From: Patescibacteria group bacterium
GTDB lineage: Bacteria > Patescibacteriota > Patescibacteriia > JAQUQO01
Length of the DNA: 64,000 nucleotides
NCBI GenBank assembly: GCA_028716045.1
Contig: JAQUQO010000001.1
Span: forward strand, 862,343 to 926,342
Reading direction: 5' to 3'
Shown here: one piece after another, positions 30-42,246 of the stretch
Layout of the letters: each line of letters opens with the position of its first letter
Numbering within the stretch: the first letter of the stretch is position 1
Position numbers and translations under genes: made by a program
Notes under the pieces: generated by a model
The model's input: only the letters and a program-made list of their open reading frames with translations
What the model was told of the DNA's origin: nothing
Databases searched by the model: none

Positions 30-1022
30 TTATAGCAAACCGATTATTTCTTTAACTTCCCCTATGGTTTTTTGCGCTATTTTTTGAGCTGTCTGCCGTC
101 CGTCGGCCAAAATTTCCTCCACGTATTTTTTATTTTTTTGGAGTTCGGCTCTTCTGGCGCGGAAGGGGGCAAGATAATCGGCAATAGCTTTGGCCACGGC
201 GGTCTTCATCTCACCGTATTTGACATTATGTGTGGCCACTTGCGTTTTGAAATGTTTTATAACCTCCTCTTTGCCAAAATATGTCAAGAGGTTCAAAAGA
301 TTTTTCCCTCCGGCTGGCAATTCTTTTTCATCTCCCGTTCCCGTCGGCGCCTTTTTGATTTTATTCAAAATAGTTTCCGGCTCATCGTGGATAGAAATAT
401 AAGTTTTTTCCCCGTCGCTTTTACTCATTTTTTTCTCCGGTTCGATTAAACTCATAATCTTGGCCGTTTCGGTCAGATAACCGGCGGGTTCCTCAAAATA
501 ATTTACTTTAAAGCGATTATTAAACCAGCGAGCGGCGTCTTTGGCGAGTTCTAAATGCTGGGTTTGGTCTTGTCCGACGGGAACCAGGTTAGCGTGATAA
601 AGTAAAATATCGGCGGCTTGAAGAATGGGGTAGGTGAGTAGTCCGGTATTGATATTTTTAATATTTTTTTGAGCCTTGTCTTTATATTGAGTCATTCTTT
701 CTAGCTCTCCGATCGGGGTAAGGGAATTAAATATCCAAGCCAACTCGGTGCATTCGGGAATTTGCGATTGGATGAAAATGGTTGATTTTTCCGGGTCAAC
801 GCCCGCCGCCAGATAATCCAAAACCAAATCTAAAATTTGGTTCTTTTTTTCTTTGGGGTCATAAGCAACGGTAATGGAGTGATAATCAGCCACGAAGAAA
901 AAACATTTATATTTTTTTTGGAGCTCCACCCAATTTTTAAGCGCGCCTAAATAGTTGCCGATGTGCAGGTCGCCGGTCGGCTGCATTCCCGAAAGGACAA
1001 TTTTTTTAGTATCTTTATTCAT
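30..1022 (-). CDS. trpS: tryptophan--tRNA ligase
   Basis: 330 aa. Class I aaRS signatures GDLHIGNYLG (HIGH-type) and KMSKS. N-terminus GMQPTG typical of TrpRS. Confidence 0.9.
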   Translation of the reverse strand: MNKDTKKIVLSGMQPTGDLHIGNYLGALKNWVELQKKYKCFFFVADYHSITVAYDPKEKKNQILDLVLDYLAAGVDPEKSTIFIQSQIPECTELAWIFNSLTPIGELERMTQYKDKAQKNIKNINTGLLTYPILQAADILLYHANLVPVGQDQTQHLELAKDAARWFNNRFKVNYFEEPAGYLTETAKIMSLIEPEKKMSKSDGEKTYISIHDEPETILNKIKKAPTGTGDEKELPAGGKNLLNLLTYFGKEEVIKHFKTQVATHNVKYGEMKTAVAKAIADYLAPFRARRAELQKNKKYVEEILADGRQTAQKIAQKTIGEVKEIIGLL

Positions 1023-1098
1023 ATTATTTTAGTTTAGCAAAAAATTTAGAGAAAGAAAAGTAGTAGTGTGATATGCCCTCGCTCCCTTTAAAACCGAA

Positions 1099-1120
1099 GC
1101 CGCGACATCGATGTCGCGGC
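1099..1120. terminator. perfect 22-bp palindrome GCCGCGACATCGATGTCGCGGC between two minus-strand genes (putative terminator/hairpin)
   Basis: Palindrome read directly in the sequence. Only a weak U-run follows on the minus strand. Confidence 0.4.
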
Positions 1121-1152
1121 TACAAACAACTTTTAATGCCAGAAGTAATTCC

Positions 1153-2283
1153 TTACAACTTATCCAAAACTTTTTGATATAAACTACATGGTATGACCAC
1201 GTCGTCTTTTGGTGGGCATTTACAATTGAATATGCCCTTCCTGACTTTATAATTTTGGCTCCTCTCCCAAATATCTTTTAATTTTTCTTTTTTTACATTT
1301 CCTTCTATTTCTGTGAAGCCCGGGCAGCCAACAACATTACCATTGGCAGTCACATATAGCCCACAGGCAATTTGGTTACAAGGATGAATACCGGGCATGC
1401 AAGAAATACCCTCTCTTTTGATTTGCTCAATTGTTTGTATCCCATTCTCTATGTTCCAAGAGTAAATCTTTATAAATAAATCGTACTTTTGTTTTTCTGA
1501 TAAATCATACCGTTTTAGAAATTCTTTATCAATTTGTTTTCCGCTTGTCATAAGAAAATTAGGAATAAGATATATATTCCTTCGGCGAGCGTAAACATAG
1601 AGATCAAAAATTTCATCGTAATTTTCCTTGGTGATTGGTCCTAATTCAAGAGCCAGCCTAGTGGGGTTTGATTTTGTAAAACCAGCATTTACTAAATTTA
1701 TTAGAGCCTGATTTCTAACGAAAGAATGATTTTTTATGTTCCCCACCAATCCATCTTGTTTATCTGTGTCAAAAGATTGAAAACTGAGCATAAAACTAAC
1801 TTTCAATTTGGAGAGTTCGTTACACAATTCTTGTGCCGACTTAATTCCGTAAGCACGATAGAATTTTTTGGCTTCTTCATCATTTCCCAAAACTTGCCCT
1901 TTTGTAAATACTGCTACCCCAATATTTCTTTCGGTCATGTCTTGAAGAAATTTTAAAAAATTACTATTTTGTGTAGGTTCTCCGGCGCCGCAAATTTTAA
2001 TGCTTTGTAGCCCCAATTCCCTAGCTTCATCTATTACACTAATTAATTCATCATAAGTTAGATCTCCCTTCAGGGTGTCATCAATAACATTTCTTTTTCT
2101 AAAACAAGCAGGGCAATTTAAAGAACAGAACCTGCCGAAATCTATGTCTAGCATTAAAAGTTTGCCTTTGTTTTTTTGAATTTGTTTTTCCGGGAAAAAT
2201 CCGAAATATTCCATAGTATTTTGGAAATTTTGGGGAAATTTACTCGGGAATATTTCCGGTATTTTTGGAATTATTTTGAGCAC
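1153..2283 (-). CDS. radical SAM protein with C-terminal Cys-rich (SPASM-like) region
   Basis: CSLNCPAC (CX3CX2C) near the N-terminus. Several C-terminal Cys pairs. Confidence 0.7.
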   Translation of the reverse strand: MLKIIPKIPEIFPSKFPQNFQNTMEYFGFFPEKQIQKNKGKLLMLDIDFGRFCSLNCPACFRKRNVIDDTLKGDLTYDELISVIDEARELGLQSIKICGAGEPTQNSNFLKFLQDMTERNIGVAVFTKGQVLGNDEEAKKFYRAYGIKSAQELCNELSKLKVSFMLSFQSFDTDKQDGLVGNIKNHSFVRNQALINLVNAGFTKSNPTRLALELGPITKENYDEIFDLYVYARRRNIYLIPNFLMTSGKQIDKEFLKRYDLSEKQKYDLFIKIYSWNIENGIQTIEQIKREGISCMPGIHPCNQIACGLYVTANGNVVGCPGFTEIEGNVKKEKLKDIWERSQNYKVRKGIFNCKCPPKDDVVIPCSLYQKVLDKL

Positions 2284-2320
2284 AATAATTTTTTTAAAGA
2301 ATTGGGCTTATTCCGTCTAA

Positions 2321-4090
2321 CTATACCTCTATGATTACCGGCAAAATCATCGGCCGGCGTTCGGTTTTCATAAAGAGAAATTGTCCGATGTCATTACGAA
2401 GTTTATTTTTCAGGTCGGAACTTTGAGCGGCAGTTCGGGGGTCTTTATCGTCAAGTATTTTTTTGGCTTTGCGGCGGGTTTCTTCAACCAATCGTTTATT
2501 TTCTTTCATATAAATAAAACCCCGAGAAATAATATCCGGATTGCCGACTAAGCGTCCGGTTTTGGCTTCAATGGTGGCGATAATCACGAGCATACCGCTT
2601 TCAGACATCACTTGCCGGTCACGCAGTACGATATTGGAAATATCCCCGATTCCCAGTCCGTCCACAAAGACGTAGTCGGTATTGGCCTTGCGTTCGTAAA
2701 TTTTTACTTTATTATTTTTGAGTTCAAAAACACTGCCGTCGTCCAAAACGAAAACATTGTTTTTATTATAGCCCAAACCATAGGCGATATTTGCCGCTTC
2801 CTTGAGAAAATAATGGTTGGCATACACCGGCAGAAAATAGGTCGGTTTAATTTCCCTGATCATTTCTTTGATGTCCGCCGCCGTGCTGTGTCCCGAAGAG
2901 TGGACATCCATAATATCAGAATGGATAACGTGGTCGCTTAAGCGATAAAGATTGTCTTTGAGTCGTTGGATTGTTCTTTCATTGCCGGGAATAACCGAAG
3001 AAGAAAAAACAATGGTGTCCTGCTTTTGGATTTTGATATTTTTATGAGCGCCGCGGATGATGCGCGATAAAACCGCGTGGCTTTCTCCTTGCGCGCCGGT
3101 GCAAATGACAATAATTTTATTATCCGGATAATTATTGATTTGCTCTATGTTAATTAAAGTCCCTTTGCCGATTTTAATGTAGCCGAGTTTTTGGGCTATT
3201 TCTACGTTAGCTTTCATGCTATAACCGTCCAAAGCAACCTTTTTGTTAATTTGCGTCGCGTATTCCAAAATTTGTTTAATTCTTTCCACTTGAGAAGCAA
3301 AGGTGGCAATAATAATTCTGCCCGGCGCTCCGGAAATAAGCTTCTTCAAATTTTCGTACATAATTTTTTCCGGCACTCTTTCCCTGGAAGAAGTAGCCCC
3401 CAAACTTTCCAGCATCAGAATTGAGGGTTTTGGCGTTTTGGTTAAATAATTGTAGGTAATTTTTTCTCCGTGGATCGGATTTTGTTCCATGGTCCAGTCG
3501 CCCGGGTGAATAACAGTGCCCGCCGGAGTTTCAATTGTCACGCCCATGGCATCCATTATAGAGTGTTCCACGCGGAAGAATCCGACGCGGAAAGAACCCA
3601 GAGCGATTTTTTGTTCAAAATTTTTAACCGCGATAGTTTTCAGCCGGCCCGAACTGCCTTTTTTATAATCCTCTTGGCGGTGCTTTATCATGGCTAAAGT
3701 CAGGTCGCGGCCGATAATAGTCGGGTTGCCGATTTGTTCCAAAAGTATGGGGGCGGCGCCGATATGGTCTAAATGACCATGGCTGAAGATTACTCCCCGA
3801 ACATTTTTTTCTTTACCTTTGAGGTAGGAAATGTTGGGAATAATATAATCAATTCCCGGCATATCTTCCTCGGGGAACTGGATGCCCATGTCTAAAATGA
3901 CAATATCATTGCCATATTCAAAGACGGTCATATTACGGCCGACTTCTTCGTTGCCGCCCAAAATGATGATGTTTAATTTTTTTCCGTCGTCGTTTAATTT
4001 TTTTGCCCCATCGCCATAATGATAAGGACGAGCCGGGCGTCTTTTCATTCGGCGCTCGCTCGGATTTTGTTTTTTGTATTTGTAATACAT
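2321..4090 (-). CDS. rnj: ribonuclease J (metallo-beta-lactamase/beta-CASP)
   Basis: 589 aa. HGHLDH metallo-beta-lactamase motif. Length and architecture typical of RNase J. Lys/Arg-rich N-terminal extension. Confidence 0.8.
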   Translation of the reverse strand: MYYKYKKQNPSERRMKRRPARPYHYGDGAKKLNDDGKKLNIIILGGNEEVGRNMTVFEYGNDIVILDMGIQFPEEDMPGIDYIIPNISYLKGKEKNVRGVIFSHGHLDHIGAAPILLEQIGNPTIIGRDLTLAMIKHRQEDYKKGSSGRLKTIAVKNFEQKIALGSFRVGFFRVEHSIMDAMGVTIETPAGTVIHPGDWTMEQNPIHGEKITYNYLTKTPKPSILMLESLGATSSRERVPEKIMYENLKKLISGAPGRIIIATFASQVERIKQILEYATQINKKVALDGYSMKANVEIAQKLGYIKIGKGTLINIEQINNYPDNKIIVICTGAQGESHAVLSRIIRGAHKNIKIQKQDTIVFSSSVIPGNERTIQRLKDNLYRLSDHVIHSDIMDVHSSGHSTAADIKEMIREIKPTYFLPVYANHYFLKEAANIAYGLGYNKNNVFVLDDGSVFELKNNKVKIYERKANTDYVFVDGLGIGDISNIVLRDRQVMSESGMLVIIATIEAKTGRLVGNPDIISRGFIYMKENKRLVEETRRKAKKILDDKDPRTAAQSSDLKNKLRNDIGQFLFMKTERRPMILPVIIEV

Positions 4091-4145
4091 AGCTCGTTTT
4101 AATTTTTAAAAGATAACGCTCAGCGTTAGAAGATAAATAAAATGT

Positions 4146-4229
4146 GCCGATGGTGGGAGTTGAACCCACATCCCGCTAAGCGGGACAGCGCCCTGAACGC
4201 TGCGTGTCTACCAATTCCACCACATCGGC
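4146..4229 (-). tRNA. tRNA-Leu(CAG), long variable arm
   Basis: Reverse complement GCCGATGTGGTGGAATTGGTAGACAC...TTCAGGG anticodon loop...GGTTCAACTCCCACCATCGGCA. 7-bp acceptor stem, long extra arm. Confidence 0.8.
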
Positions 4230-4395: not shown

Positions 4396-6405
4396 TTAAA
4401 AGTTTAAATTTTTTTTGGTTTTTATGTACCACTTCTCTATCTTAGCGAAACGGTCAGAGGGTATAGTCAAACGATTAGCAACTATTCCTTTAATTTTTTT
4501 ATCCATGACATACGTATAGGTCGGGGAATAAAGGAAAATAGCCGGCAGTTCTTTGCTCATAATATCCTGAAACTCTTTGTATTTTTTGCTACGCTCTTCG
4601 GTGTTGATAGTTTGCCGGGCGTCTTCTAAAAGTTCGTCAATGTGGCGATTGACAAAAATGGCTAAATTGAGTCCGGGGTGAGAATTTTGTGAAGAATGCC
4701 AGAAAGGATAGGGGTCGGGGTCGGAACCGACGATTTCCGAATATAATAAAATTTCGTAATCTCTGTTTTTAATTGTTTCGCGGCGGATATCGGCGGGCGG
4801 AACAATAATCAGATTAACTTTAATGCCAATTTCCTGCCAGTAATTTTTTATCAGTTCCGCGGCTTTGACATTTTCCGCTTGGTTGACGGTGGTTAAATTT
4901 AAAGCTAAGATTTCCCCGCTTTTTTTCCGGAAAAAGTTTTGACCCTTGTCAATTTCGTTGTTAATTTTTTCACTGATAATTTCAGCGGGATCTTTAGTTT
5001 CCGGATTATTTTCCACCGCCGGTAAATTGTTTTCCCCCGCAGCGGCAGCCGGAGGGGTGCTCGTTGGTTGTTTGGCTTTTTCTTCCTCAAGTTTTTTCAG
5101 TTCTTCGGCCAGGCGATTATTTATATAATCTTCAATAGGTAGGATTTCCCATTTTAATTCGTCAAGAATTTTATTAGCCTCGGATAAATTAAGGTCATAT
5201 TTTTCCGTTTCATTGGTATAGCCAAGATAGCCCGGGAGAATGGGCCCGTCAATTACTACTCCTTCCCCGCCCAGTATTTCTTCTAAAATTTTCTGCCGGT
5301 CCAAACTCAGAGCCAGCGCTTTCCTTAAATTTTTATCCTTAAGGACATCCTTTTTTGACTGATTGAAAAAAAGAGCGGTGTATTGAGGTATTTGTAGGGA
5401 ATAATAGACCAGACCTTTGTTTTTTTCCACCACAGATTTCAATTCCCGGGGCAGAAAATTTACACCTTCGGTATTTTTATTGCGCAAGGCCTCAACGGCG
5501 CTGTTAAAATCAGGATAAAATTTGAAGTTAATTTTTTCTATAAAGGGTCGTCCCAAATAATAATTTTCGTTGCGCGATAGACGATAGGATTTTATGTTGC
5601 CCAGCCGATCTTTGGTCAAGCTTTCAAATCTAAAGGGGCCAGACCCTATTGGTTTTAGGTTGTATTCCGCCAAGTGAATGTTGGCCGGGGGAATCTCGCC
5701 CCAAATATGCCTTGGCAAGATGCCAAAAGTAAGAATTTCAATGAACGGTGCGTAAGGTTCTTCAAGAGAAAAAGAAATCTTATAGTCATCAATTTTAGAA
5801 ACAGTTACTCCGCGAAAGCTCGGCGCGAGCGGACTGCGATATTCTGGGTCTTTAATGCTTTCCACCGTAAAAATAACATCATCGGCGGTAAAGGGGGCGC
5901 CATCATGCCACAAAACATTTTGTTTAAGATAAACAGTATAAACTTTTTGGTCCGCGGTTATTTCCCATTTTTCCGCCAGATCCAAAACTATTTCCTGGTT
6001 CTCGTTGTATTGCAGTAAGCTGGAAAAAATTAAACGGCTCAAATCGCGGTCAACCTCGCTGGTTTGCGCCAACACCGGATTAAGGTAGCGCGGTGTTCCC
6101 ACTAAACCCTCAGTATATTCGCCCCCGTAGGAAGGGGAATAGGTCACCCGCTCCTTGTAAGTCATCCAGCCCAAAATTCCTAAGGCCAGTACCGCTGTTG
6201 CCAAAACAATTTTTATCAGTAAATTTTCAGTGGGGCCGAGAAATTTAGGAAGGTGTTTTAGCTGTTTAAAACTGGGAATACGCGATTTTGACAAAGACAA
6301 AACCAGCTTTTTGTCTAAATCCGCTTGTTTGACAAAAGGCCGAGGATTGTTATTTTTTTGGACTTCGTCATTTTTGGAACGACGAAAAAAATCTTGAAAT
6401 TTCAC
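4396..6405 (-). CDS. ABC transporter substrate-binding protein, family 5 (peptide/nickel type), membrane-anchored
   Basis: 669 aa. N-terminal TM helix. SBP_bac_5-like core. Pro/Ala/Glu low-complexity insert. Confidence 0.65.
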   Translation of the reverse strand: MKFQDFFRRSKNDEVQKNNNPRPFVKQADLDKKLVLSLSKSRIPSFKQLKHLPKFLGPTENLLIKIVLATAVLALGILGWMTYKERVTYSPSYGGEYTEGLVGTPRYLNPVLAQTSEVDRDLSRLIFSSLLQYNENQEIVLDLAEKWEITADQKVYTVYLKQNVLWHDGAPFTADDVIFTVESIKDPEYRSPLAPSFRGVTVSKIDDYKISFSLEEPYAPFIEILTFGILPRHIWGEIPPANIHLAEYNLKPIGSGPFRFESLTKDRLGNIKSYRLSRNENYYLGRPFIEKINFKFYPDFNSAVEALRNKNTEGVNFLPRELKSVVEKNKGLVYYSLQIPQYTALFFNQSKKDVLKDKNLRKALALSLDRQKILEEILGGEGVVIDGPILPGYLGYTNETEKYDLNLSEANKILDELKWEILPIEDYINNRLAEELKKLEEEKAKQPTSTPPAAAAGENNLPAVENNPETKDPAEIISEKINNEIDKGQNFFRKKSGEILALNLTTVNQAENVKAAELIKNYWQEIGIKVNLIIVPPADIRRETIKNRDYEILLYSEIVGSDPDPYPFWHSSQNSHPGLNLAIFVNRHIDELLEDARQTINTEERSKKYKEFQDIMSKELPAIFLYSPTYTYVMDKKIKGIVANRLTIPSDRFAKIEKWYIKTKKNLNF

Positions 6406-6429
6406 AGCAGATTTAAATTAGCTCCGCCG

Positions 6430-6648
6430 TTATTTTTGGAGCACCAGCAAGAGAAGGGCTGTTCCTAAAAAGAGTATGGAGAAGATTATAGTTGAAATAA
6501 AAAGAGATTTCTCGATTCCTCTTTTGGTCCGGTAAACATTGCTTTCTCCCCCAAAAGCTGAACCCAGGCCAGTCCCTCGGCGCTGTAATAAAATCACAAT
6601 CATCAGCAGAACGGCGATAACGATTTGTAGAATAGTTAGATATTTCAT
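6430..6648 (-). CDS. secG: preprotein translocase subunit SecG
   Basis: 72 aa, two TM helices, LLQRRGTGLGSAFGG motif typical of SecG. Confidence 0.8.
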   Translation of the reverse strand: MKYLTILQIVIAVLLMIVILLQRRGTGLGSAFGGESNVYRTKRGIEKSLFISTIIFSILFLGTALLLLVLQK

Positions 6649-6787
6649 AGTATTTAAGAGTTTACCATCGGATTAGATAAATGTCAAGCGCTTTTATGGC
6701 GAAACTCATTTTGGCCGTTTTTTTAGGCCTTTATTTTCTAACCGTTATTTTAATGATATACTATTTATGTAGAAAACACAAAACATC

Positions 6788-7498
6788 ATGGCCTTGAGCA
6801 AAAAGATAGTAAAATTTTTTTTAATTATTCTTTTATCCCTACTGATATTAGCCGGGTTATTTTTTACGGGGATTTTTTATTTTAAATCGTTGAATGACGA
6901 TTTAAAATCAGGGGAAAATATTCCTTCGGCGCCGAGCGAGCTGTTTAATCCTCAATTATTATCTTTACGCTCTCAATTGGAAACCGCTGATGACCCGCGT
7001 TTAGGGCCGGACGATGCGCCAATTACTATTGTGCAGTTTATGGATTTCCGCTGTCCGGTTTGCGCCGAGGCCTTTCCAGTTTTGCGGGAGCTTAGTTATT
7101 TATATAAAGATAAGGTTAAATTTATTTTGCGTGATTATCCTTTAAAAGCCGAGGAGTCGTTAAATTTTGCTTTAGCCGGAAATTGCGCTCTGGAACAAAA
7201 AAAGTTTTGGCCGTTTCACGATAAGATGTTCCAGTATAAAGATAAGATTACTTTGGAAAATTTGTCTCAATACACCGAGCAGGCGGGCCTTAATAAAGAA
7301 AATTTTAGCGCCTGTCTAAATTCGGAAAGATATAAGAAAGAAGTTTATGACGATATTGCCGATGCCCAAGCGCTGGGAGTAAAGGGCACGCCCACTTGGT
7401 TTATTAATGGCTATAAATTTGAAGGAGCCGTCCCATTGGAACAATTTAAGGAAATTATCGGCGGCGTGTTGGAGAGAATGGAGACAGGCAGCAAATAG
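6788..7498 (+). CDS. DsbA-family thiol:disulfide oxidoreductase (thioredoxin fold)
   Basis: N-terminal TM helix, CPVC active-site motif, DsbA-like length. Confidence 0.75.
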   Translation: MALSKKIVKFFLIILLSLLILAGLFFTGIFYFKSLNDDLKSGENIPSAPSELFNPQLLSLRSQLETADDPRLGPDDAPITIVQFMDFRCPVCAEAFPVLRELSYLYKDKVKFILRDYPLKAEESLNFALAGNCALEQKKFWPFHDKMFQYKDKITLENLSQYTEQAGLNKENFSACLNSERYKKEVYDDIADAQALGVKGTPTWFINGYKFEGAVPLEQFKEIIGGVLERMETGSK

Positions 7499-7521
7499 GC
7501 AAGATAATTTTTTATAAAAAG

Positions 7522-7554
7522 AAAAAGCCACTAGTTATTAGCTAGTGGCTTTTA
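7522..7554. terminator. intrinsic terminator hairpin AGCCACTAG-TTATTA-GCTAGTGGCT plus U-run
   Basis: Perfect 10-bp stem followed by TTTT. Downstream of the dsbA-like gene. Confidence 0.6.
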
Positions 7555-7706
7555 TGTCGCCGGTTATTTTTTTTCCAAGGATTACTTTGCCAAGGAATAA
7601 ACCCGCGGTGCTTTAATTCCCCCTTCCTTTCCATTTTGCGGATTATCTCCACATAGTCCTCAACCATTAAAACTGTTTTAGGATTTTTAGGTTTTTTTGC
7701 TCCCAT
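7542..7706 (-). CDS. small hypothetical protein (54 aa, MGAKKPKNPKTVLMVEDYVEIIRKMERKGELKHRGFIPWQSNPWKKNNRRHKSH)
   Basis: Not in the ORF track because it is under 60 aa. Strong SD (AGGTGGGAGGA) 6 nt before the ATG on the minus strand. The stop lies inside the terminator hairpin. Confidence 0.3.
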   Translation of the reverse strand: MGAKKPKNPKTVLMVEDYVEIIRKMERKGELKHRGFIPWQSNPWKKNNRRHKSH

Positions 7707-7878
7707 TTTTTCCTCCCACCTTAGGTTTGTTTCTGTAAAGGCGCTGTTTGTATTTTACCGCCAAGGGAGTGCGTTGTCAAACTAGATGCCCAGCAATTTT
7801 ATATTTTAACCCACCCCTTGACCGTCTCTTGATTTTATCTTATACTTACTATTAATTAATTTACTTATCCACATCCTC

Positions 7879-25803: not shown

Positions 25804-25815
<12 letters not shown>
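25485..25815 (+). mobile_element. putative mini insertion (~295 bp) carrying a GIY-YIG ORF, bounded by 18-19 bp direct repeats TATTAAGCGGTAGTAGTT equal to the 5' end of tRNA-Gly
   Basis: DR copies at 25485-25502 and 25798-25815. The left copy continues as a degenerate tRNA-Gly 5' half (D-arm TTGGTAGAACG retained, anticodon arm replaced by palindrome CCCCGCCATGGCGGGG). Confidence 0.35.
25562..25810 (+). CDS. GIY-YIG nuclease-domain protein (YhbQ/UPF0213-like)
   Basis: 82 aa. FVYILQS...YYIGSTNDLSRRLEEHN matches the GIY-YIG motif. The stop codon lies inside the first bases of tRNA-Gly. Confidence 0.7.
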
Positions 25816-25876
<61 letters not shown>

Positions 25877-25968
25877 CAAAGAAAAAATTATTGTATTTGG
25901 GTTTTGAAAATGTAAATTTTTTCAGAACGGACCACCCGTTTTTTATTTTTGTCGTGCGGGTTTTGGGT

Positions 25969-25989
25969 GACCCCGCCTTGGCGGGGGAA
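25969..25989 (+). repeat. 21-bp hairpin element GACCCCGCCTTGGCGGGGGAA (exact second copy at 33358-33378; related palindrome at 25537-25552)
   Basis: Exact string match seen twice. Lies immediately 5' of tRNA-Leu(TAA). Confidence 0.8.
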
Positions 25990-25996
25990 CCGAAAG

Positions 25997-26084
25997 GCCG
26001 AGGTGGTGAAATAGGTAGACACGCGAGACTTAAAATCTCGTGGATGAATAATCCGTGCGGGTTCGATTCCCGCCCTCGGCACCA
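25997..26084 (+). tRNA. tRNA-Leu(TAA), CCA encoded
   Basis: GCCGAGG acceptor stem, anticodon loop CTTAAAA, long variable arm, GGTTCGATTCC T-arm, ...CACCA 3' end. Confidence 0.85.
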
Positions 26085-26085
26085 A

Positions 26086-26174
26086 GACAACCAACAACAG
26101 AACAACAGAACAACTGACAACCCAGAACATTCTATCTCGTTGTTAGTTATTGGTTGTAGGTTGTCAGTTCCTTT
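26086..26174 (+). repeat. ~90-nt tRNA-Lys leader, copy 1 (CAACCAACAACAGAAC...GGTTGTAGGTTGTCAGTTCC), with internal inverted repeats
   Basis: Near-identical to 26401-26489. Copy 1 has an extra CAGAACAA duplication. Confidence 0.8.
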
Positions 26175-26250
26175 GCGCCGTTAGCTCAGCTGGTAGAGCA
26201 ACTGCCTTTTAAGCAGAAGGTCACAGGTTCAAATCCTGTACGGCGTACCA
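26175..26250 (+). tRNA. tRNA-Lys(TTT), CCA encoded
   Basis: GCGCCGTTAGCTCAGCTGGTAGAGC, anticodon loop CTTTTAA, T-arm GGTTCAAATCC. Confidence 0.85.
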
Positions 26251-26312
26251 GAGCGGACATCTTCGAACGTTCGTAAATTATTTTTTATTAGTGTAGTGAA
26301 AAGAAAAATTTT

Positions 26313-26399
26313 GGGTCGGTACCAAAGCGGTCAACTGGGGCAGACTGTAAATCTGCTGGCCTTGTGCCTTCGTTGGTTCGAATCCAGCCCGACCCACCA
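26313..26399 (+). tRNA. tRNA-Tyr(GTA), long variable arm, CCA encoded
   Basis: GGGTCGG acceptor stem, anticodon loop CTGTAAA, GGTTCGAATCC T-arm. Confidence 0.85.
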
Positions 26400-26400
26400 A

Positions 26401-26489
26401 GATAACAAGACAACCAACAACAGAACAACTGACAACCCAGAACATTCTATCTCGTTGTTGGTTATTGGTTGTAGGTTGTCAGTTCCTTT
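26401..26489 (+). repeat. tRNA-Lys leader, copy 2
   Basis: Segmental duplicate of 26086-26174. Confidence 0.8.
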
Positions 26490-26564
26490 GCGCCGTTAGC
26501 TCAGCTGGTAGAGCAGTTGCCTCTTAAGCAAACGGTCGCAGGTTCAAATCCTGCACGGCGCACC
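26490..26564 (+). tRNA. tRNA-Lys(CTT)
   Basis: Same body as Lys(TTT) but anticodon loop CTCTTAA. 3' end ACC (CCA not fully encoded). Confidence 0.85.
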
Positions 26565-35791: not shown

Positions 35792-36721
35792 ATGGTTTAC
35801 GATACGATAATTATCGGTTCCGGTCCGGCGGGATACACGGCGGCAATTTATGCTTCCCGCGGCAGTTTAAAAACTTTGTTAGTTGACGGGTTGCAGATTG
35901 GTGGTCAGCTTATTATGACCACTACCATAGAAAATTTTCCCGGGTGGCCGGAAGGAGTTTTGGGAATAGAATTGATGAATAAAATGCGCCAGCAAGCCGA
36001 ACGATTCGGTACGGAAATAAAATCCGGCGAAGTTAAGGAAATTGATTTTAAAGCCCGACCATTCAAGGTAAAAACCGGCGATTCCGAGTTTGAAGGAAAA
36101 ACAATCATTATTGCCACCGGCGCTTCGGCGCGCTGGCTGGGTTTGCCTGAAGAGAAAAGATTGCGCAATGGCGGAGTTTCCGCTTGCGCCACCTGCGACG
36201 GATTTTTTACCAAGGGCAAAGAAGTGGCGGTTATCGGCGGAGGAGATACGGCTATGGAAGAAGCGAATTTTTTGACTCGTTTTGCCGATAAGGTGACGGT
36301 TATTCATCGTCGCGAGGAATTACGCGCTTCTAAAATCATGGTGGACCGCGCCAAGAGCAATCCCAAGATTGAATTTTTACCAAATTATGAGGTGATAGAA
36401 ATTTTAGGCGATAAAAAAGTGGAAGGCCTGCGTCTTAAAAATACTAAAACAGGGGAGTTAAAAGAATTTAAATGCGCAGCGGTATTTTTGGCCATTGGCC
36501 ATCAGCCCAATGTCGGATTCTTGAATGGCAAGATAGAATTGGATGAGAGAGGATATATCAAAACCGAATCTAACTCCACCCAAACCAATATCCCGGGAGT
36601 ATTTGCCGCCGGCGATGTGGCTGATTCGCGCTATCGTCAGGCGATTATTGCCGCCGGCCGTGGTTGTATGGCGGCTAAAGAAGCGGGGTGGTATTTAGAG
36701 GACGGAGAAAATAAAAAATAA
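35792..36721 (+). CDS. trxB: thioredoxin-disulfide reductase
   Basis: 309 aa. GSGPAGYTAAIY FAD motif. Redox-active CATC. NADPH GGGD motif. Confidence 0.9.
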   Translation: MVYDTIIIGSGPAGYTAAIYASRGSLKTLLVDGLQIGGQLIMTTTIENFPGWPEGVLGIELMNKMRQQAERFGTEIKSGEVKEIDFKARPFKVKTGDSEFEGKTIIIATGASARWLGLPEEKRLRNGGVSACATCDGFFTKGKEVAVIGGGDTAMEEANFLTRFADKVTVIHRREELRASKIMVDRAKSNPKIEFLPNYEVIEILGDKKVEGLRLKNTKTGELKEFKCAAVFLAIGHQPNVGFLNGKIELDERGYIKTESNSTQTNIPGVFAAGDVADSRYRQAIIAAGRGCMAAKEAGWYLEDGENKK

Positions 36722-37931: not shown

Positions 37932-40900
37932 ATGTTTCCTCGGTATAATTTTAAGAAAATAGAAAAAAAATGGCAGAAGCAATGGGAAAGCGACGGTATT
38001 TATCATTCCACACAAGATTTTAATAAAAAGAAATTTTATTCTTTAATTGAGTTCCCTTATCCGTCCGGTCAGGGGCTTCATGTCGGTCATCCGCGCAGTT
38101 ATACGGCCATGGATTTGATTTCCCGTAAAAAAAGGATGGAAGGTTTTAATGTTTTGTATCCCATCGGCTGGGACGCTTTTGGTTTGCCGGCGGAAAATTA
38201 TGCCATTAAAACCGGCATTCATCCGGCCAAGGCCACCGCCGCCAACATTAAAACTTTCAAAAAACAAATTAAGTCGCTCGGACTTTCTTTTGACTGGTCG
38301 CGCGAGATTAACACCACCGACCCGGCCTATTACAAATGGACACAGTGGATGTTTTTGCAACTCTTCAAACATGGTTTGGCTTACAAAACAAAAATCGCCA
38401 TCAATTGGTGTAAGAACTGCAAAATCGGTTTGGCTAATGAAGAAGTGGTTAATGGCAAATGCGAACGTTGTGGTGGTGAAGTGGAAAAGCGCGAGAAAGA
38501 ACAATGGATGATTAAAATTACCAAATACGCGCAAAGGTTACTGGATGATTTGGACAAGGTTGATTATTTGCCGCAGATTAAAGAACAGCAGAAGAATTGG
38601 ATTGGAAGAAGTGAAGGAGCGCTTATTGACTTTGGACTACGGACTACAGCTGACCGTTTGCGAGAAGATGCGGTAGTCAGTAGTCGGAAAGCCGTAGACA
38701 AAATTAAGGTTTTTACGACCAGACCAGATACTTTGTTTGGCGCGACATATATGGTTCTCTCACCGGAGCACGGGATTATTAAAAATTTAGAATCAAGCAT
38801 TACGAATTACGCAGAAGTGAGAAAATATATTGAGCAAGCCAAGAGAAAGTCGGATTTAGAGCGCACGGAATTACAAAAAGAAAAAACCGGTGTAGAAATT
38901 AAAGGCATTAAAGCAATTAATCCGGTTAATGGCGAAGAATTGCCGATTTGGGTGGCGGATTATGTTCTCGCGAGTTATGGCACCGGTACGATTATGGCAG
39001 TGCCGGCACATGATGAGAGGGACTTTGAATTCGCCAAGAAATATAGTTTGCCCATCAAAACAGTTGTTACTACCCGTAAAGATAATATTGTTGGCGTTGG
39101 CGCAATGATTGAAATAAGGGGCGGTAAATTTTTATTTCAAAGAAGAGATAAAAATACTGACAGAAATCCGGGTATGCTGGCATTTTTTGGCGGCGGTATA
39201 GAAAACAACGAAGATACGGAAGAAGCTTTGAAGAGAGAAATTAAAGAAGAGCTTAATTTAGAAGTAAAAGATAATTTTGTATTATTGAATAAATTAGAAA
39301 GCCATAATTTCCCCGGGAAATATCTGGATATTTTTTATGTCAAAAATATTGACGAGAAAAATATCAAACTTAGTGAGGGTGATGCTATTAAAAAACTTGA
39401 TTTGTCGGAAGCTTTAGCCAGAACCGATGTTACACCCTTTACGAAAAATGTTATAAAGTATTTATTAGAAAAAAAATGTTTTACCGAAGAAGGCATAAGT
39501 GAACATTCTGATTTTTTGAACGGCTTGTCCACCCCTGAAGCTAAGGGAAAAATGATTAACTGGTTAGAAGAAAAAGGCGTGGGCAAAAGGGCGATAAATT
39601 ATAAACTTCGCGATTGGGTTTTTTCCCGCCAACGTTATTGGGGAGAGCCGATTCCGCTCGTACATTGCGAGAAGTGTGCCCATTCGACAAGCTCAGGGCA
39701 GGGCTGGATTCCTGTTCCGGAAAAAGATTTGCCGGTTAAACTTCCCAAAGTAAAAAAATACGAACCGACGGATACGGGCGAATCGCCGCTGGCGACCATA
39801 GAAAAATGGGTAAATGTAAAATGCCCGAAGTGCGGCGGAGCGGCTAAAAGAGAAACGGACACCATGCCCAATTGGGCGGGTTCGTCTTGGTATTTTTTAC
39901 GTTATACCGACCCAGCGAACGATAAGGAATTCGCGAACAGAGAGAATTTGAAATATTGGATGACGGCTTGCCCCGCCAGTCAAAATAAATGTAGCGAAGT
40001 GGGCGGGGTGGACTGGTATAATGGGGGGATGGAACATGTCACTTTGCATCTTTTATATTCCAGATTTTGGTATAAATTTTTATACGATATTGGCGCGATT
40101 CCTAAAGAGTGCGGCGATGAGCCATACAAAAAAAGAACTTCGCAGGGTATGATTTTAGGCGAAGGTGGGGAGAAGATGTCCAAGTCGCGCGGCAATGTTA
40201 TTAATCCCGACGATGTTGTTAAGGAGCATGGCGCGGATACTTTCCGCGTCTATGAAATGTTCATGGGTCCGTTTGACCAGGCGATTCCTTGGGATACGCA
40301 GGGGGTTATCGGCTGTCGTAGGTTTTTGGAAAGAGTGTGGCGGTTACAAGAAAAAATAACTAAAAATGTCATTCCGATCCCGAGTTCTCGGGATGAAGAA
40401 TTTGGGTCGGATCCTTCGGTCGTCCCGAGTGCTCGAGACTCCCTCAAGGATGACAATCTTAAGAAGTTGCTTCACAAGACGATTAAAAAGGTTACCGAGG
40501 ATATTGAAGAGATGAAATTTAATACAGCTATTTCGCAAATGATGATTTTAGTAAATGAGATGGAAAAGCAGGAAAAGATTCCCTCAATTTATTATTCCAA
40601 ATTGTTGATTCTTTTGGCTCCTTTCGCTCCGCATATTACTGAAGAGCTTTGGCAAAAGGTAGGCCCCGCCTCTGCCGAAGCTACGGCGGGCAAGAATAAA
40701 AAAAGTATACATTTGGAGAAGTGGCCGGAACCCAATTTAGAATTAATAAAAGACACAGAAATTATTTTAGTCATTCAGGTCAACGGCAAGGTTCGCGATA
40801 ACATCACCGTTCCCGCAGACATTTCCGAGAAAGAAGCCAAGAAACTGGCGCTGGAGTCAGAAAAAATTAGAAAGTTTGTGCCCGGTGAACCGAAGAAAGT

Positions 40901-40940
40901 TATATTTGTGCCGGGGAAATTAATTAATATAGTTACTTAG
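37932..40940 (+). CDS. leuS: leucine--tRNA ligase carrying an inserted NUDIX-box domain
   Basis: 1002 aa. HVGH (PYPSGQGLHVGHP), KMSKS (KMSKSRGN) and editing-domain motifs (AVPAHDERDFEFAKKY). A ~140-aa insert contains GGGIENNEDTEEALKREIKEELNL, which matches the Nudix box GX5EX7REUXEEXGU. Confidence 0.9.
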   Translation: MFPRYNFKKIEKKWQKQWESDGIYHSTQDFNKKKFYSLIEFPYPSGQGLHVGHPRSYTAMDLISRKKRMEGFNVLYPIGWDAFGLPAENYAIKTGIHPAKATAANIKTFKKQIKSLGLSFDWSREINTTDPAYYKWTQWMFLQLFKHGLAYKTKIAINWCKNCKIGLANEEVVNGKCERCGGEVEKREKEQWMIKITKYAQRLLDDLDKVDYLPQIKEQQKNWIGRSEGALIDFGLRTTADRLREDAVVSSRKAVDKIKVFTTRPDTLFGATYMVLSPEHGIIKNLESSITNYAEVRKYIEQAKRKSDLERTELQKEKTGVEIKGIKAINPVNGEELPIWVADYVLASYGTGTIMAVPAHDERDFEFAKKYSLPIKTVVTTRKDNIVGVGAMIEIRGGKFLFQRRDKNTDRNPGMLAFFGGGIENNEDTEEALKREIKEELNLEVKDNFVLLNKLESHNFPGKYLDIFYVKNIDEKNIKLSEGDAIKKLDLSEALARTDVTPFTKNVIKYLLEKKCFTEEGISEHSDFLNGLSTPEAKGKMINWLEEKGVGKRAINYKLRDWVFSRQRYWGEPIPLVHCEKCAHSTSSGQGWIPVPEKDLPVKLPKVKKYEPTDTGESPLATIEKWVNVKCPKCGGAAKRETDTMPNWAGSSWYFLRYTDPANDKEFANRENLKYWMTACPASQNKCSEVGGVDWYNGGMEHVTLHLLYSRFWYKFLYDIGAIPKECGDEPYKKRTSQGMILGEGGEKMSKSRGNVINPDDVVKEHGADTFRVYEMFMGPFDQAIPWDTQGVIGCRRFLERVWRLQEKITKNVIPIPSSRDEEFGSDPSVVPSARDSLKDDNLKKLLHKTIKKVTEDIEEMKFNTAISQMMILVNEMEKQEKIPSIYYSKLLILLAPFAPHITEELWQKVGPASAEATAGKNKKSIHLEKWPEPNLELIKDTEIILVIQVNGKVRDNITVPADISEKEAKKLALESEKIRKFVPGEPKKVIFVPGKLINIVT

Positions 40941-40950
40941 ATAGAAATAT

Positions 40951-42246
40951 ATGAAGATAAGCATCATTGGCGCTGGCTATATTGGACTTACGTCCGGAGC
41001 AATTTTTGCCGATTTAGGCAATACGGTCTGGATGATAAGAAGGGATAAAGAAAAAATTGAAGATTTGAAAAAAGGAATTTGTCCGATTTATGAGCCCGGG
41101 CTGGAAGAAATAATCAGAAAAAATCTGAAGGTCGGCCGGCTCTTCCCTACCACGGATTACGCAGAAGCCGTTCCTAATTCTGATGCCGTTTTTATTTGCG
41201 TCGGGACCCCTTCTTTGGAAAATGGAGAAGCTGATTTATCCCAAGTAAAGACCGCCGCTCAAGAGATTGCCAAATATTTACAGGGCTATACTGTGATTAT
41301 TGATAAAAGCACCGTGCCCATCGGTACGGGAGATTTAGTCAAAGACATTGTCAGCAAAAATGCTCCGCAGGGAGCCACCTTTGATGTTGTTTCTTGCCCG
41401 GAATTTTTGCGTGAGGGTTCGGCGGTTAATGATTCGCTTAATCCAGACCGCATCGTCATCGGTTGTGACAGCCCCAAGGCCTTGGCAGTGATGTTGGAAC
41501 TGCACAAACCCCTGCCCGGGGAAAGAGTACTTACTGACGTAAAAACAGCCGAAATGATTAAGTATGCTTCCAATGCCCTTTTAGCCACAGAAATTTCTTT
41601 TATCAATAGTATTGCCAATATCTGCGAACGTTCAGGCGCGGATGTGACCAAAGTAGCGGCAGGCATCAGATTAGATAAGCGCATCGGCAAATATGCTTTT
41701 TTGGATGCTGGTTGCGGTTATGGAGGCGCTTGTTTTCCTAAAGACGTTAAAGCGCTTATTTCTTTAGCTAAGGATTATGATTATGATTTTAGTTTGTTAA
41801 AAGAGGTGGAGGAGGTAAATAAAAATCAGCGTAAGTTAATGGTGGGGAAAGTAAAAAAATTACTTCCCGATTTAGCCGGCAAAACAATAGCTGTCTGGGG
41901 GCTGGCTTTTAAACCCAATACCGATGATATGCGCGAAGCGCCGTCAGTTGATGTCATAGAATTTTTACAAAAAGAAGGAGCTAAAATAAATGCCTTTGAC
42001 CCGGTAGCAGAAAAAGTGGCGAGAAAGATTTTACAGGATGTTCATTATTTTAATGATTGTTACGAGTCGGTGCGAGGGGCTGATTGTTTGGTCATTATTA
42101 CCGATTGGAATGAATTTAAGGAATTGGATTTAAATAAAGTTAAAGATTTAATGGCGGGAAAAAACATAGTAGACGGGAGAAATATTTATGACCCGCAAGT
42201 TGTTCGCGACCTTGGCTTTAATTATTTAAGCATCGGGAGAGTTTAA
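40951..42246 (+). CDS. ugd: UDP-glucose 6-dehydrogenase
   Basis: 431 aa. N-terminal GAGYIGL Rossmann motif. Catalytic Cys region (GGACFPKD). Confidence 0.85.

Follow-up and report, generated by a model that had tools for sequence, protein, structure and literature searches.

Does a leucyl-tRNA synthetase (LeuRS) that holds a whole Nudix-fold domain inside its editing domain use that domain for its own chemistry, or does it only carry it? The question is raised by leuS of a Patescibacteria group bacterium (assembly GCA_028716045.1), which lies on the forward strand at 37932..40940 of a stretch of 64,000 nucleotides (contig JAQUQO010000001.1, positions 862,343 to 926,342; hereafter the window, to which coordinates refer unless another locus is named). 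A first-pass annotation, made from the letters alone, had described the product as a LeuRS of 1002 amino acids (aa) with a Nudix domain inserted in frame, and it was right: the open reading frame (ORF) encodes a bacterial-type LeuRS, and the Pfam model PF00293 (NUDIX) scores 48.8 bits on the inserted segment, well above its gathering cut-off of 21.1 bits. On balance, and from sequence comparison, we favour the reading that the insert works by itself as an active MutT-like pyrophosphohydrolase, and that an ordinary LeuRS carries it as a passenger cassette that can be exchanged.

The host protein is readily recognized. The product of the whole ORF scores 980 bits against TIGR00396 in a profile search (cut-off 548), and the Pfam matches in the 1002-aa protein are tRNA-synt_1, the LeuRS editing domain PF13603, Anticodon_1 and NUDIX. 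Its sequence is identical to NCBI entry MDD5043645.1, 'class I tRNA ligase family protein [Patescibacteria group bacterium]' (the exact database match, P0121), and the annotations of its closest relatives read Candidatus Falkowbacteria or other Patescibacteria. The full-length AlphaFold2 (AF2) model, with a predicted local distance difference test score (pLDDT) of 87.9 and a predicted template-modelling score (pTM) of 0.80, is matched by Foldseek to the LeuRS structures of T. thermophilus (2bte, E 3e-82) and of E. coli (4aq7, template-modelling score (TM) 0.85). The HIGH signature of the synthetic active site, here HVGH (aa 50-53, 38079..38090, forward strand), and the KMSKS signature (aa 748-752, 40173..40187, forward strand) are both intact; in an alignment of 89 sequences of relatives, H50, G52, H53, K748, S750 and K751 are invariant. 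The same alignment shows that T263, R264 and T267 of the T-rich editing motif TTRPDT (aa 262-267, 38715-38732, forward strand) and D361 and D364 of the AHDERD motif (aa 359-364, 39006-39023, forward strand) are invariant with or without an insert. The window protein is a bacterial LeuRS with intact synthetic and editing motifs, from which leucylation and editing activity are to be expected.

The insert spans 131 aa (aa 385-515, 39084..39476, forward strand). The foreign segment is therefore real, as the first-pass annotation had proposed, but its length had been put too high, at about 140 aa: the next 40 or so residues are ordinary CP1. Its position also needed revision. Instead of following the editing-domain region, the insert is nested within the CP1 editing domain, between its N-terminal part (aa 221-384, 38592..39083, forward strand; PF13603, 191.9 bits) and its C-terminal part with the return to the catalytic core (CFTEEG...GKRAIN, aa 516-560, 39477..39611, forward strand), the latter aligning with residues 375-442 of T. 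thermophilus LeuRS and with E. coli LeuRS. Both host strings quoted in the annotation were located, AHDERD as given above and YKLRDW at aa 557-562, after the CFTEEG...GKRAIN stretch. In the alignment with T. thermophilus LeuRS, matching breaks off at 363 and starts again at 375, and with the E. coli construct it breaks off at 381 and starts again at 390; what the insert replaces is therefore a short CP1 loop, of 11 residues in the former enzyme and 9 in the latter, and a Nudix domain is indeed no standard feature of LeuRS. Lacking both a start codon and a stop codon of its own, the insert is joined to CP1 at both ends.

PF00293 matches aa 387-509, covering profile positions 4-132 of 134, with 43.7 bits in the whole protein and the above 48.8 bits (E 9e-13) on the insert segment alone. 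The first-pass annotation had itself named two observations that would undo its claim, failure of PF00293 to score and alignment of the region with a standard LeuRS insertion; since PF00293 scores and, in the alignment with other LeuRS, the region matches no such insertion, the claim stands. The Nudix box GGIENNEDTEEALKREIKEELNL (aa 421-443, 39192..39260, forward strand; sequence match) had been called near-perfect, and we agree: it matches GX5EX7REUXEEXGU at each specified position except the last G, which is N442 (G421-X5-E427-X7-R435 E436-I-K-E439 E440-L-N442-L443), and the catalytic and metal-binding residues are all there. Six-frame translation revealed no second Nudix box in the 64-kb window, hence no other Nudix genes there.

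Structure prediction points the same way. The AF2 model of the insert, built with 51 family sequences, has a pLDDT of 93.1 and a pTM of 0.87, and its strands and helices follow the order beta-beta-beta-alpha-beta-beta-beta-alpha-alpha expected for a Nudix fold; within the full-length model, the Nudix region has a pLDDT of 84-96. Foldseek searches of the PDB with the insert model returned 599 matches at E<=1e-3, the best 50 of which are all Nudix-family proteins, headed by E. coli MutT (3a6t; E 2.3e-9, TM 0.74/0.79, root-mean-square deviation (rmsd) 2.7 Å) and followed by M. mazei MutT, BdRppH, NudI and NudG. The fold is thus predicted to be intact, and the insert is a whole Nudix-fold domain nested in frame in CP1.

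Is the nested domain likely to be active? We searched a library of 1.84 billion representative proteins and considered the 150 nearest representatives of the insert's family. The closest free-standing members are proteins of 130-140 aa that are 37-44% identical to the insert and align with it end to end (P0244 = MEZ4210438.1, 132 aa, annotated Patescibacteria; P0246-P0249). In LeuRS numbering, the family-invariant residues are G420, G421, R435, E436, E439, E440 and E482, and Q403, R405, P413, F419, E427 and G483 are nearly invariant (at least 90% for E427 and G483). The window copy holds every residue of both sets and, because it keeps the invariant ones, is probably catalytically competent. 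Of the 52 Nudix inserts at this loop, 49 keep the REx2EE core of the box, which speaks for selection on catalysis. Downstream of the box, the family alignment singles out E482-G483 ('EG', 39375..39380, forward strand), and E482 may be an additional catalytic or metal-binding glutamate.

We attempted to assign a substrate through NCBIfam equivalogs and PDB sequence matches, and rejected each candidate since all fell under the cut-offs. The MutT 8-oxo-dGTPase model TIGR00586 gave 45.4 bits (cut-off 97.9), the MutT model PRK10776 36.3 bits (148), the NudG model 38 bits (156) and the NudI model 32 bits (95), while the RppH/Ap4A (diadenosine tetraphosphate)-type models (NCBIfam PRK00714) gave at best 25.7 bits for a cut-off of 139 and 23.1 for one of 116. 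The top PDB sequence match of the insert is BdRppH. When the insert is aligned with Klebsiella MutT (7syc), 'fpggkie' of the latter pairs with 'ffgggie' of the former, Lys being replaced by Gly, and the family consensus at the MutT 'GGK' position is FGGG/FGGx. In E. coli MutT, the Lys of 'FPGGK' contacts phosphates. The genomic context of the free-standing relatives gave no functional clue at the two loci examined, where they lie among other small genes with no aminoacyl-tRNA synthetase (aaRS) nearby. Locus L010, from a Patescibacteria genome, holds three separate small Nudix genes within 5 kb (2642-3034, 5001-5399 and 7262-7711) among short hypothetical genes; locus L011 similarly has three histidine-phosphatase (His_Phos_1) genes near a free-standing Nudix gene of the window type.

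The first-pass annotation had left open how widely the insertion is spread. Nudix inserts were located in relatives, and the window copy is not unique: PF00293 matches 52 of the 120 best LeuRS homologues, nearly all at the window loop, and every named one comes from Patescibacteria. Inserts were placed by mapping onto an insert-free reference, on which the window loop is called site A. The site A region exceeds 110 aa in 58 proteins, 52 of them with a Nudix domain, and the Nudix inserts at this site form two BLAST clusters that have only the box in common, the window type with 12 sequences and a larger cluster of 40 that itself looks heterogeneous. Other relatives have non-Nudix content at site A, namely an α/β serine hydrolase, a nucleotidyltransferase-like domain or modules of unknown type. 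The architecture seen in the window is shared by over 50 non-identical proteins, drawn from data of NCBI, JGI, ENA and Logan.

The window-type Nudix is found at other positions too: at the N-terminal CP1 site (P0245, P0250), in the linker between the catalytic and anticodon domains (P0241), and inside CP1 of an isoleucyl-tRNA synthetase (IleRS; P0285, 1396 aa, from an ENA metagenome, with 709 bits against TIGR00392). In the last case, the insert comprises a low-molecular-weight-phosphatase/ArsC-like domain (aa 248-384) and a Nudix domain (box at aa 440), just before the WTTTPWTLP editing motif; domain insertion is therefore not confined to LeuRS. All the large hosts that we checked among the 150 nearest family representatives are class Ia aaRS.

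LeuRS relatives have further insertion hot spots (P0125, P0153, P0127, P0174, P0180, P0215, P0221 and P0224). The α/β serine hydrolases (PF06821/PF00561) are also inserted just past the CP1 return, PDDEXK_3, DUF559 and ASCH domains at the N-terminal side of CP1, and Ham1/ITPase (202 bits) between the catalytic and anticodon domains; some relatives have two or three inserted domains and reach lengths of about 1350 aa. The window LeuRS has five more short lineage-specific inserts, rich in S, P, D, E, A and G (aa 235-259, 584-591, 678-692, 814-842 and 911-925; 38634-38708, 39681-39704, 39963-40007, 40371-40457 and 40662-40706), four of which lie in low-confidence regions of the model (pLDDT of 10-residue blocks 48-69). 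The loop at aa 814-842 is the site of the window-type Nudix in P0241.

How stable is the content of the loop? In a crude neighbour-joining tree built from the host parts, the insert states are dispersed, with close relatives differing from one another. In a Magasanikbacteria-like group, P0157 has one Nudix type, P0172 another, and P0178, P0171 and P0175 no insert, the host proteins of the last three being 92-93% identical to P0157. The genes of P0157, P0172 and P0178 share 90-100% DNA identity across most of their length and differ only at site A, where about 450-500 bp are absent or unalignable (40-58% identity), the cassette edges being sharp, with identity falling off over about 60-90 bp at each. 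The polymorphism is thus visible at the DNA level, in three near-identical leuS genes with no insert, Nudix type 1 or Nudix type 2 (L007 4001-6493, L008 1043-3922 and L009 1698-4571). Homologous recombination through the conserved flanks, one of which is ...NSDFLNGL, may account for the exchange of cassettes. L009 also has an rve/HTH_38 gene (615-1604; insertion-sequence-type integrase-like, with weak or faint Pfam matches) just upstream of leuS and a free-standing PDDEXK_3 gene (4623-5042) just downstream; PDDEXK_3 is the domain family inserted within leuS of P0127.

For the window-type insert itself, identity to the six closest relatives is 70-76% in the Nudix part and 57-62% in the host part, a difference that likewise speaks for selection on catalysis. 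Within the window-type cluster, host identity ranges from 52 to 75% and Nudix identity from 29 to 79%, the two being moderately correlated (Spearman 0.44), and the nearest Nudix relatives of the window insert (76%) differ from its nearest host relatives. The insert also stands out by its G+C content at third codon positions (GC3), which is 0.267; the remainder of the gene has 0.458, and the per-amino-acid codon use of the host would predict 0.410 (P<1e-4). Among 603 comparable windows across the 64 kb, none has a lower GC3. A like contrast between insert and host is seen in two relatives (L001, 0.22 vs 0.42; L002, 0.24 vs 0.56). Four-fold sites, compared as a test of recent lateral transfer, are saturated in both insert and host (24-54% identity between the window, L001 and L002, with small n).

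According to the reading that we favour, a whole small Nudix enzyme would have been put in frame, with linkers of about five residues, into a surface loop of CP1, yielding a domain in a domain in a domain. LeuRS would still charge and proofread tRNA-Leu, as expected because its synthetic and editing motifs are all kept, and would in addition display an independent Nudix active site. The loop would be a Patescibacteria-specific hot spot whose content is gained, lost and swapped as a cassette, with the free-standing Nudix relatives as the likely source. With Mg2+ or Mn2+ as cofactor, the Nudix domain would hydrolyse some derivative of a nucleoside di- or triphosphate and so serve house-cleaning or salvage, and by riding on LeuRS it would be expressed constitutively, as part of an essential gene, in a very small genome.

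Several points weigh against this reading. As all NCBIfam equivalogs score far below cut-off, the substrate cannot be read from the sequence. Nudix domains make up about 52 of the 58 large inserts at the loop, and all large hosts checked among the 150 nearest family representatives are class Ia aaRS; this enrichment exceeds what a purely neutral, permissive loop would yield and hints that tethering to an aaRS brings some benefit. Finally, the low GC3 of the insert, which otherwise supports a passenger cassette, could reflect foreign origin or weaker codon selection alike. The enrichment leaves some room for a looser link to aaRS function, in which we include a speculative protection of the synthetase in conflicts; in total, such a link is rather unlikely.

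One such link would couple the Nudix domain to the chemistry of LeuRS itself: it could act on Ap4A or diadenosine triphosphate (Ap3A), clear mis-activated aminoacyl-adenylates in cis before transfer, or act on pyrophosphate-containing by-products or an end of tRNA-Leu. That at least two Nudix groups with only the box in common were recruited to one CP1 loop argues for coupling, as do the window-type copies at the second CP1 site (P0245, P0250) and in CP1 of the IleRS (P0285), the class Ia aaRS identity of all large hosts checked among the nearest relatives, and the likeness to RppH (BdRppH as top PDB sequence match of the insert, with other cassette types weakly RppH/YtkD-like). However, LeuRS function can do without the module, given the alleles of 92-93% identity that lack it; the editing motifs are the same with and without insert; and the presence of the family far from CP1, in the catalytic-to-anticodon linker of P0241, speaks against a mechanism tied to geometry. 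The NCBIfam models of RppH and Ap4A type, moreover, reach only 20-26 bits for cut-offs of 116-241, and no aaRS lies near the free-standing relatives at the loci examined. A free Nudix gene adjoins leuS in only one of four insert-free genomes examined. Four observations favour the passenger reading and speak against a geometry-dependent role in editing: near-identical alleles dispense with the insert, its family is found at more than one position, the loop also holds domains of unrelated kinds, and the editing motifs stay constant whatever the insert state. We consider coupling to LeuRS chemistry rather unlikely, and from these comparisons we do not favour a role of the insert in Ap4A hydrolysis or editing, the functions that the first-pass annotation had put forward. 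It is unlikely, too, that class Ia synthetases in Patescibacteria, LeuRS as well as one IleRS or more, exchange hydrolase cassettes by recombination (Nudix here; α/β-hydrolase, Ham1 and others in relatives) under selection for action in cis on aaRS-related nucleotides; if they did, candidate substrates would be mis-activated adenylates, Ap4A-type by-products and adenylate-mimicking toxins of competitors, and the cassettes would form an extra modular layer of proofreading or self-protection on an aaRS.

Alternatively, the loop could be a variable cassette driven by conflict, in which the Nudix domain, and likewise the α/β-hydrolase, Ham1 and nucleotidyltransferase-like modules of relatives, would shield LeuRS in cis from adenylate-mimicking toxins or from nucleotides of phages or competitors, and the turnover between strains would then be diversifying selection. 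The presence, absence and replacement polymorphism between leuS alleles that are 90-100% identical in DNA would fit, as would the nature of the inserted modules, which are diverse small hydrolases and transferases. We know of no Nudix enzyme that cleaves adenylate-mimic antibiotics. Over its full length, the insert also matches the PADLOC candidate PDC-S07 (59.2 bits, for a model without curated cut-off), but PADLOC detects PDC-S07 in 99% of Enterobacter genomes (PMC12851794); it is thus a generic model that picks up a near-universal small Nudix and is uninformative on defence, and we rejected it as a link to phage defence. Since, in addition, no defence or toxin genes were identified beside leuS in the window or at loci L004-L009, we regard the conflict explanation as improbable. 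Loss of catalysis, with the Nudix fold kept as a structural, RNA-binding or regulatory appendage, could be suspected from N442 in place of the last G of the box, from the Gly in place of the Lys of MutT 'GGK', and from the degenerate boxes of a few relatives (R->M with E->Q in P0222 and P0236, E->Q in P0238). It is quite improbable, given that E427, R435, E436, E439, E440 and E482 are present, and invariant or nearly so in fused and free-standing members alike, and that the N-for-G change is common to many family members that otherwise keep the box. Lastly, the fused gene could be spurious, through chimeric assembly or a wrong join of frames, or the insert could be an intein-like element that is removed after translation, for which one might invoke the atypical GC3 of the insert and the relative in L002, whose leuS lies in two ORFs. 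This is extremely improbable: the reading frame is unbroken, the identical protein is found under two NCBI accessions, on two contigs, and the same architecture is shared by the more than 50 non-identical proteins mentioned above. As regards splicing, no Hint or intein Pfam match was found up to E = 1, and the insert begins with ...RKDNIVG and ends with ...LLEKK, followed by CF, without the His-Asn of an intein; the CF, like the other junction residues ('...ECF...'), belongs to the host loop of insert-free relatives too.

The surroundings of leuS were examined in the window and in relatives. In L003 (Candidatus Uhrbacteria), an insert-free leuS of 775 aa (690-3017) is followed 3 bp on by a free NudE-like Nudix gene of 189 aa (3020-3589), whose likeness to the insert is limited to the surroundings of the Nudix box (44% over 54 aa), and next by a gene for UDP-glucose dehydrogenase, the gene that also follows leuS in the window (40951-42246). 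We rejected a conserved leuS-Nudix neighbourhood, the adjacency being confined to this one of the four insert-free genomes examined and the three others having no Nudix nearby. In L002 (Candidatus Falkowbacteria), leuS is split 5' of the Nudix insert into ORFs of 266 aa (4894-5694) and 644 aa (5812-7746), which could be due to a frameshift, a pseudogene or an assembly error; in the Nudix box of a related fragment, P0001, several E residues are changed to K and one extra residue is present, perhaps through decay or sequencing error. A thioredoxin reductase gene lies 5' of leuS in the window (35792-36721), and a thioredoxin gene, with or without the reductase, does so in L004-L007; ComEC, a metallo-beta-lactamase-fold gene and NDK are found 3' of leuS in several relatives, though not in the window. 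The window further contains a tRNA cluster (25804-26564: Gly-GCC, Leu-TAA, Lys-TTT, Tyr-GTA, Lys-CTT) and a lone tRNA-Leu(CAG) at 4144-4229 and, apart from tRNAs, no Rfam family at gathering score. Its two other very large ORFs, UvrA and a weakly matching GT-C-type glycosyltransferase, are not synthetases.

These observations matter because, in Patescibacteria, an essential, highly conserved enzyme of translation carries insertion hot spots whose content (several kinds of Nudix, α/β-hydrolase, Ham1, PD-(D/E)XK, DUF559, ASCH) varies, down to alleles that are 90-100% identical in DNA. They amount to a natural experiment in domain insertion that could be of use in engineering permissive sites of LeuRS, and the inserts may explain why NCBI names such proteins merely 'class I tRNA ligase family protein'. 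Should aaRS-related nucleotides prove to be substrates of the Nudix domain, this would represent cis-acting quality control of a new kind. We found no description of the LeuRS-Nudix architecture in the literature searched. Because such proteins are already in NCBI, UniRef and JGI with PF00293 pre-computed (e.g. UniRef100_A0A1G2FBJ3), the window protein is an undescribed variant and not an unseen sequence. Multi-domain aaRS and Nudix fusions are known; what is not described in the literature searched is a complete enzyme nested in the editing domain of LeuRS.

How, then, does the window protein compare with known systems? A 2026 survey of domain insertions records the LeuRS editing domain exclusively among the inserted modules, in no case as a host (PMC13114784), whereas here it is the host. 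The canonical LeuRS of T. thermophilus (1h3n/2bte) and E. coli (4aq7/4arc) share the domain order, the HIGH and KMSKS signatures, the CP1 motifs and the fold, and differ by the loop of 9-11 residues that is replaced by 131 aa here. NCBIfam NF040702, 'isoleucine--tRNA ligase, N-acetyltransferase domain-containing', which we compare by name alone, is likewise a class Ia synthetase with an extra small-molecule enzyme domain, but host, passenger and position are all different. NadM-Nudix (2qjo, which the insert matches) resembles the window protein in joining a Nudix domain to another nucleotide-handling enzyme; fusions of this type, however, are end to end and have a clear metabolic link, in contrast to the nested arrangement seen here, which has no evident pathway link. 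The insert is akin to the MutT-type enzymes MutT (3a6t/1mut), NudG/ORF135 (2rrk), NudI (3n77) and BdRppH (3ees) in size (about 130 aa), in fold (TM 0.73-0.79, rmsd 2.5-3.2 Å) and in the catalytic residues of the box, yet it is only 20-27% identical to them, is nested in another enzyme and not free-standing, and belongs to a family with features of its own (QxRD...PG...FGGG, EG and a recurrent VTxFTK-like C-terminal stretch). The free-standing members of that family share their invariant residues with the insert and start and end where it does, those named above being 37-41% identical to it over their full length in the alignment, but they are encoded by independent genes among small genes and Nudix paralogues.

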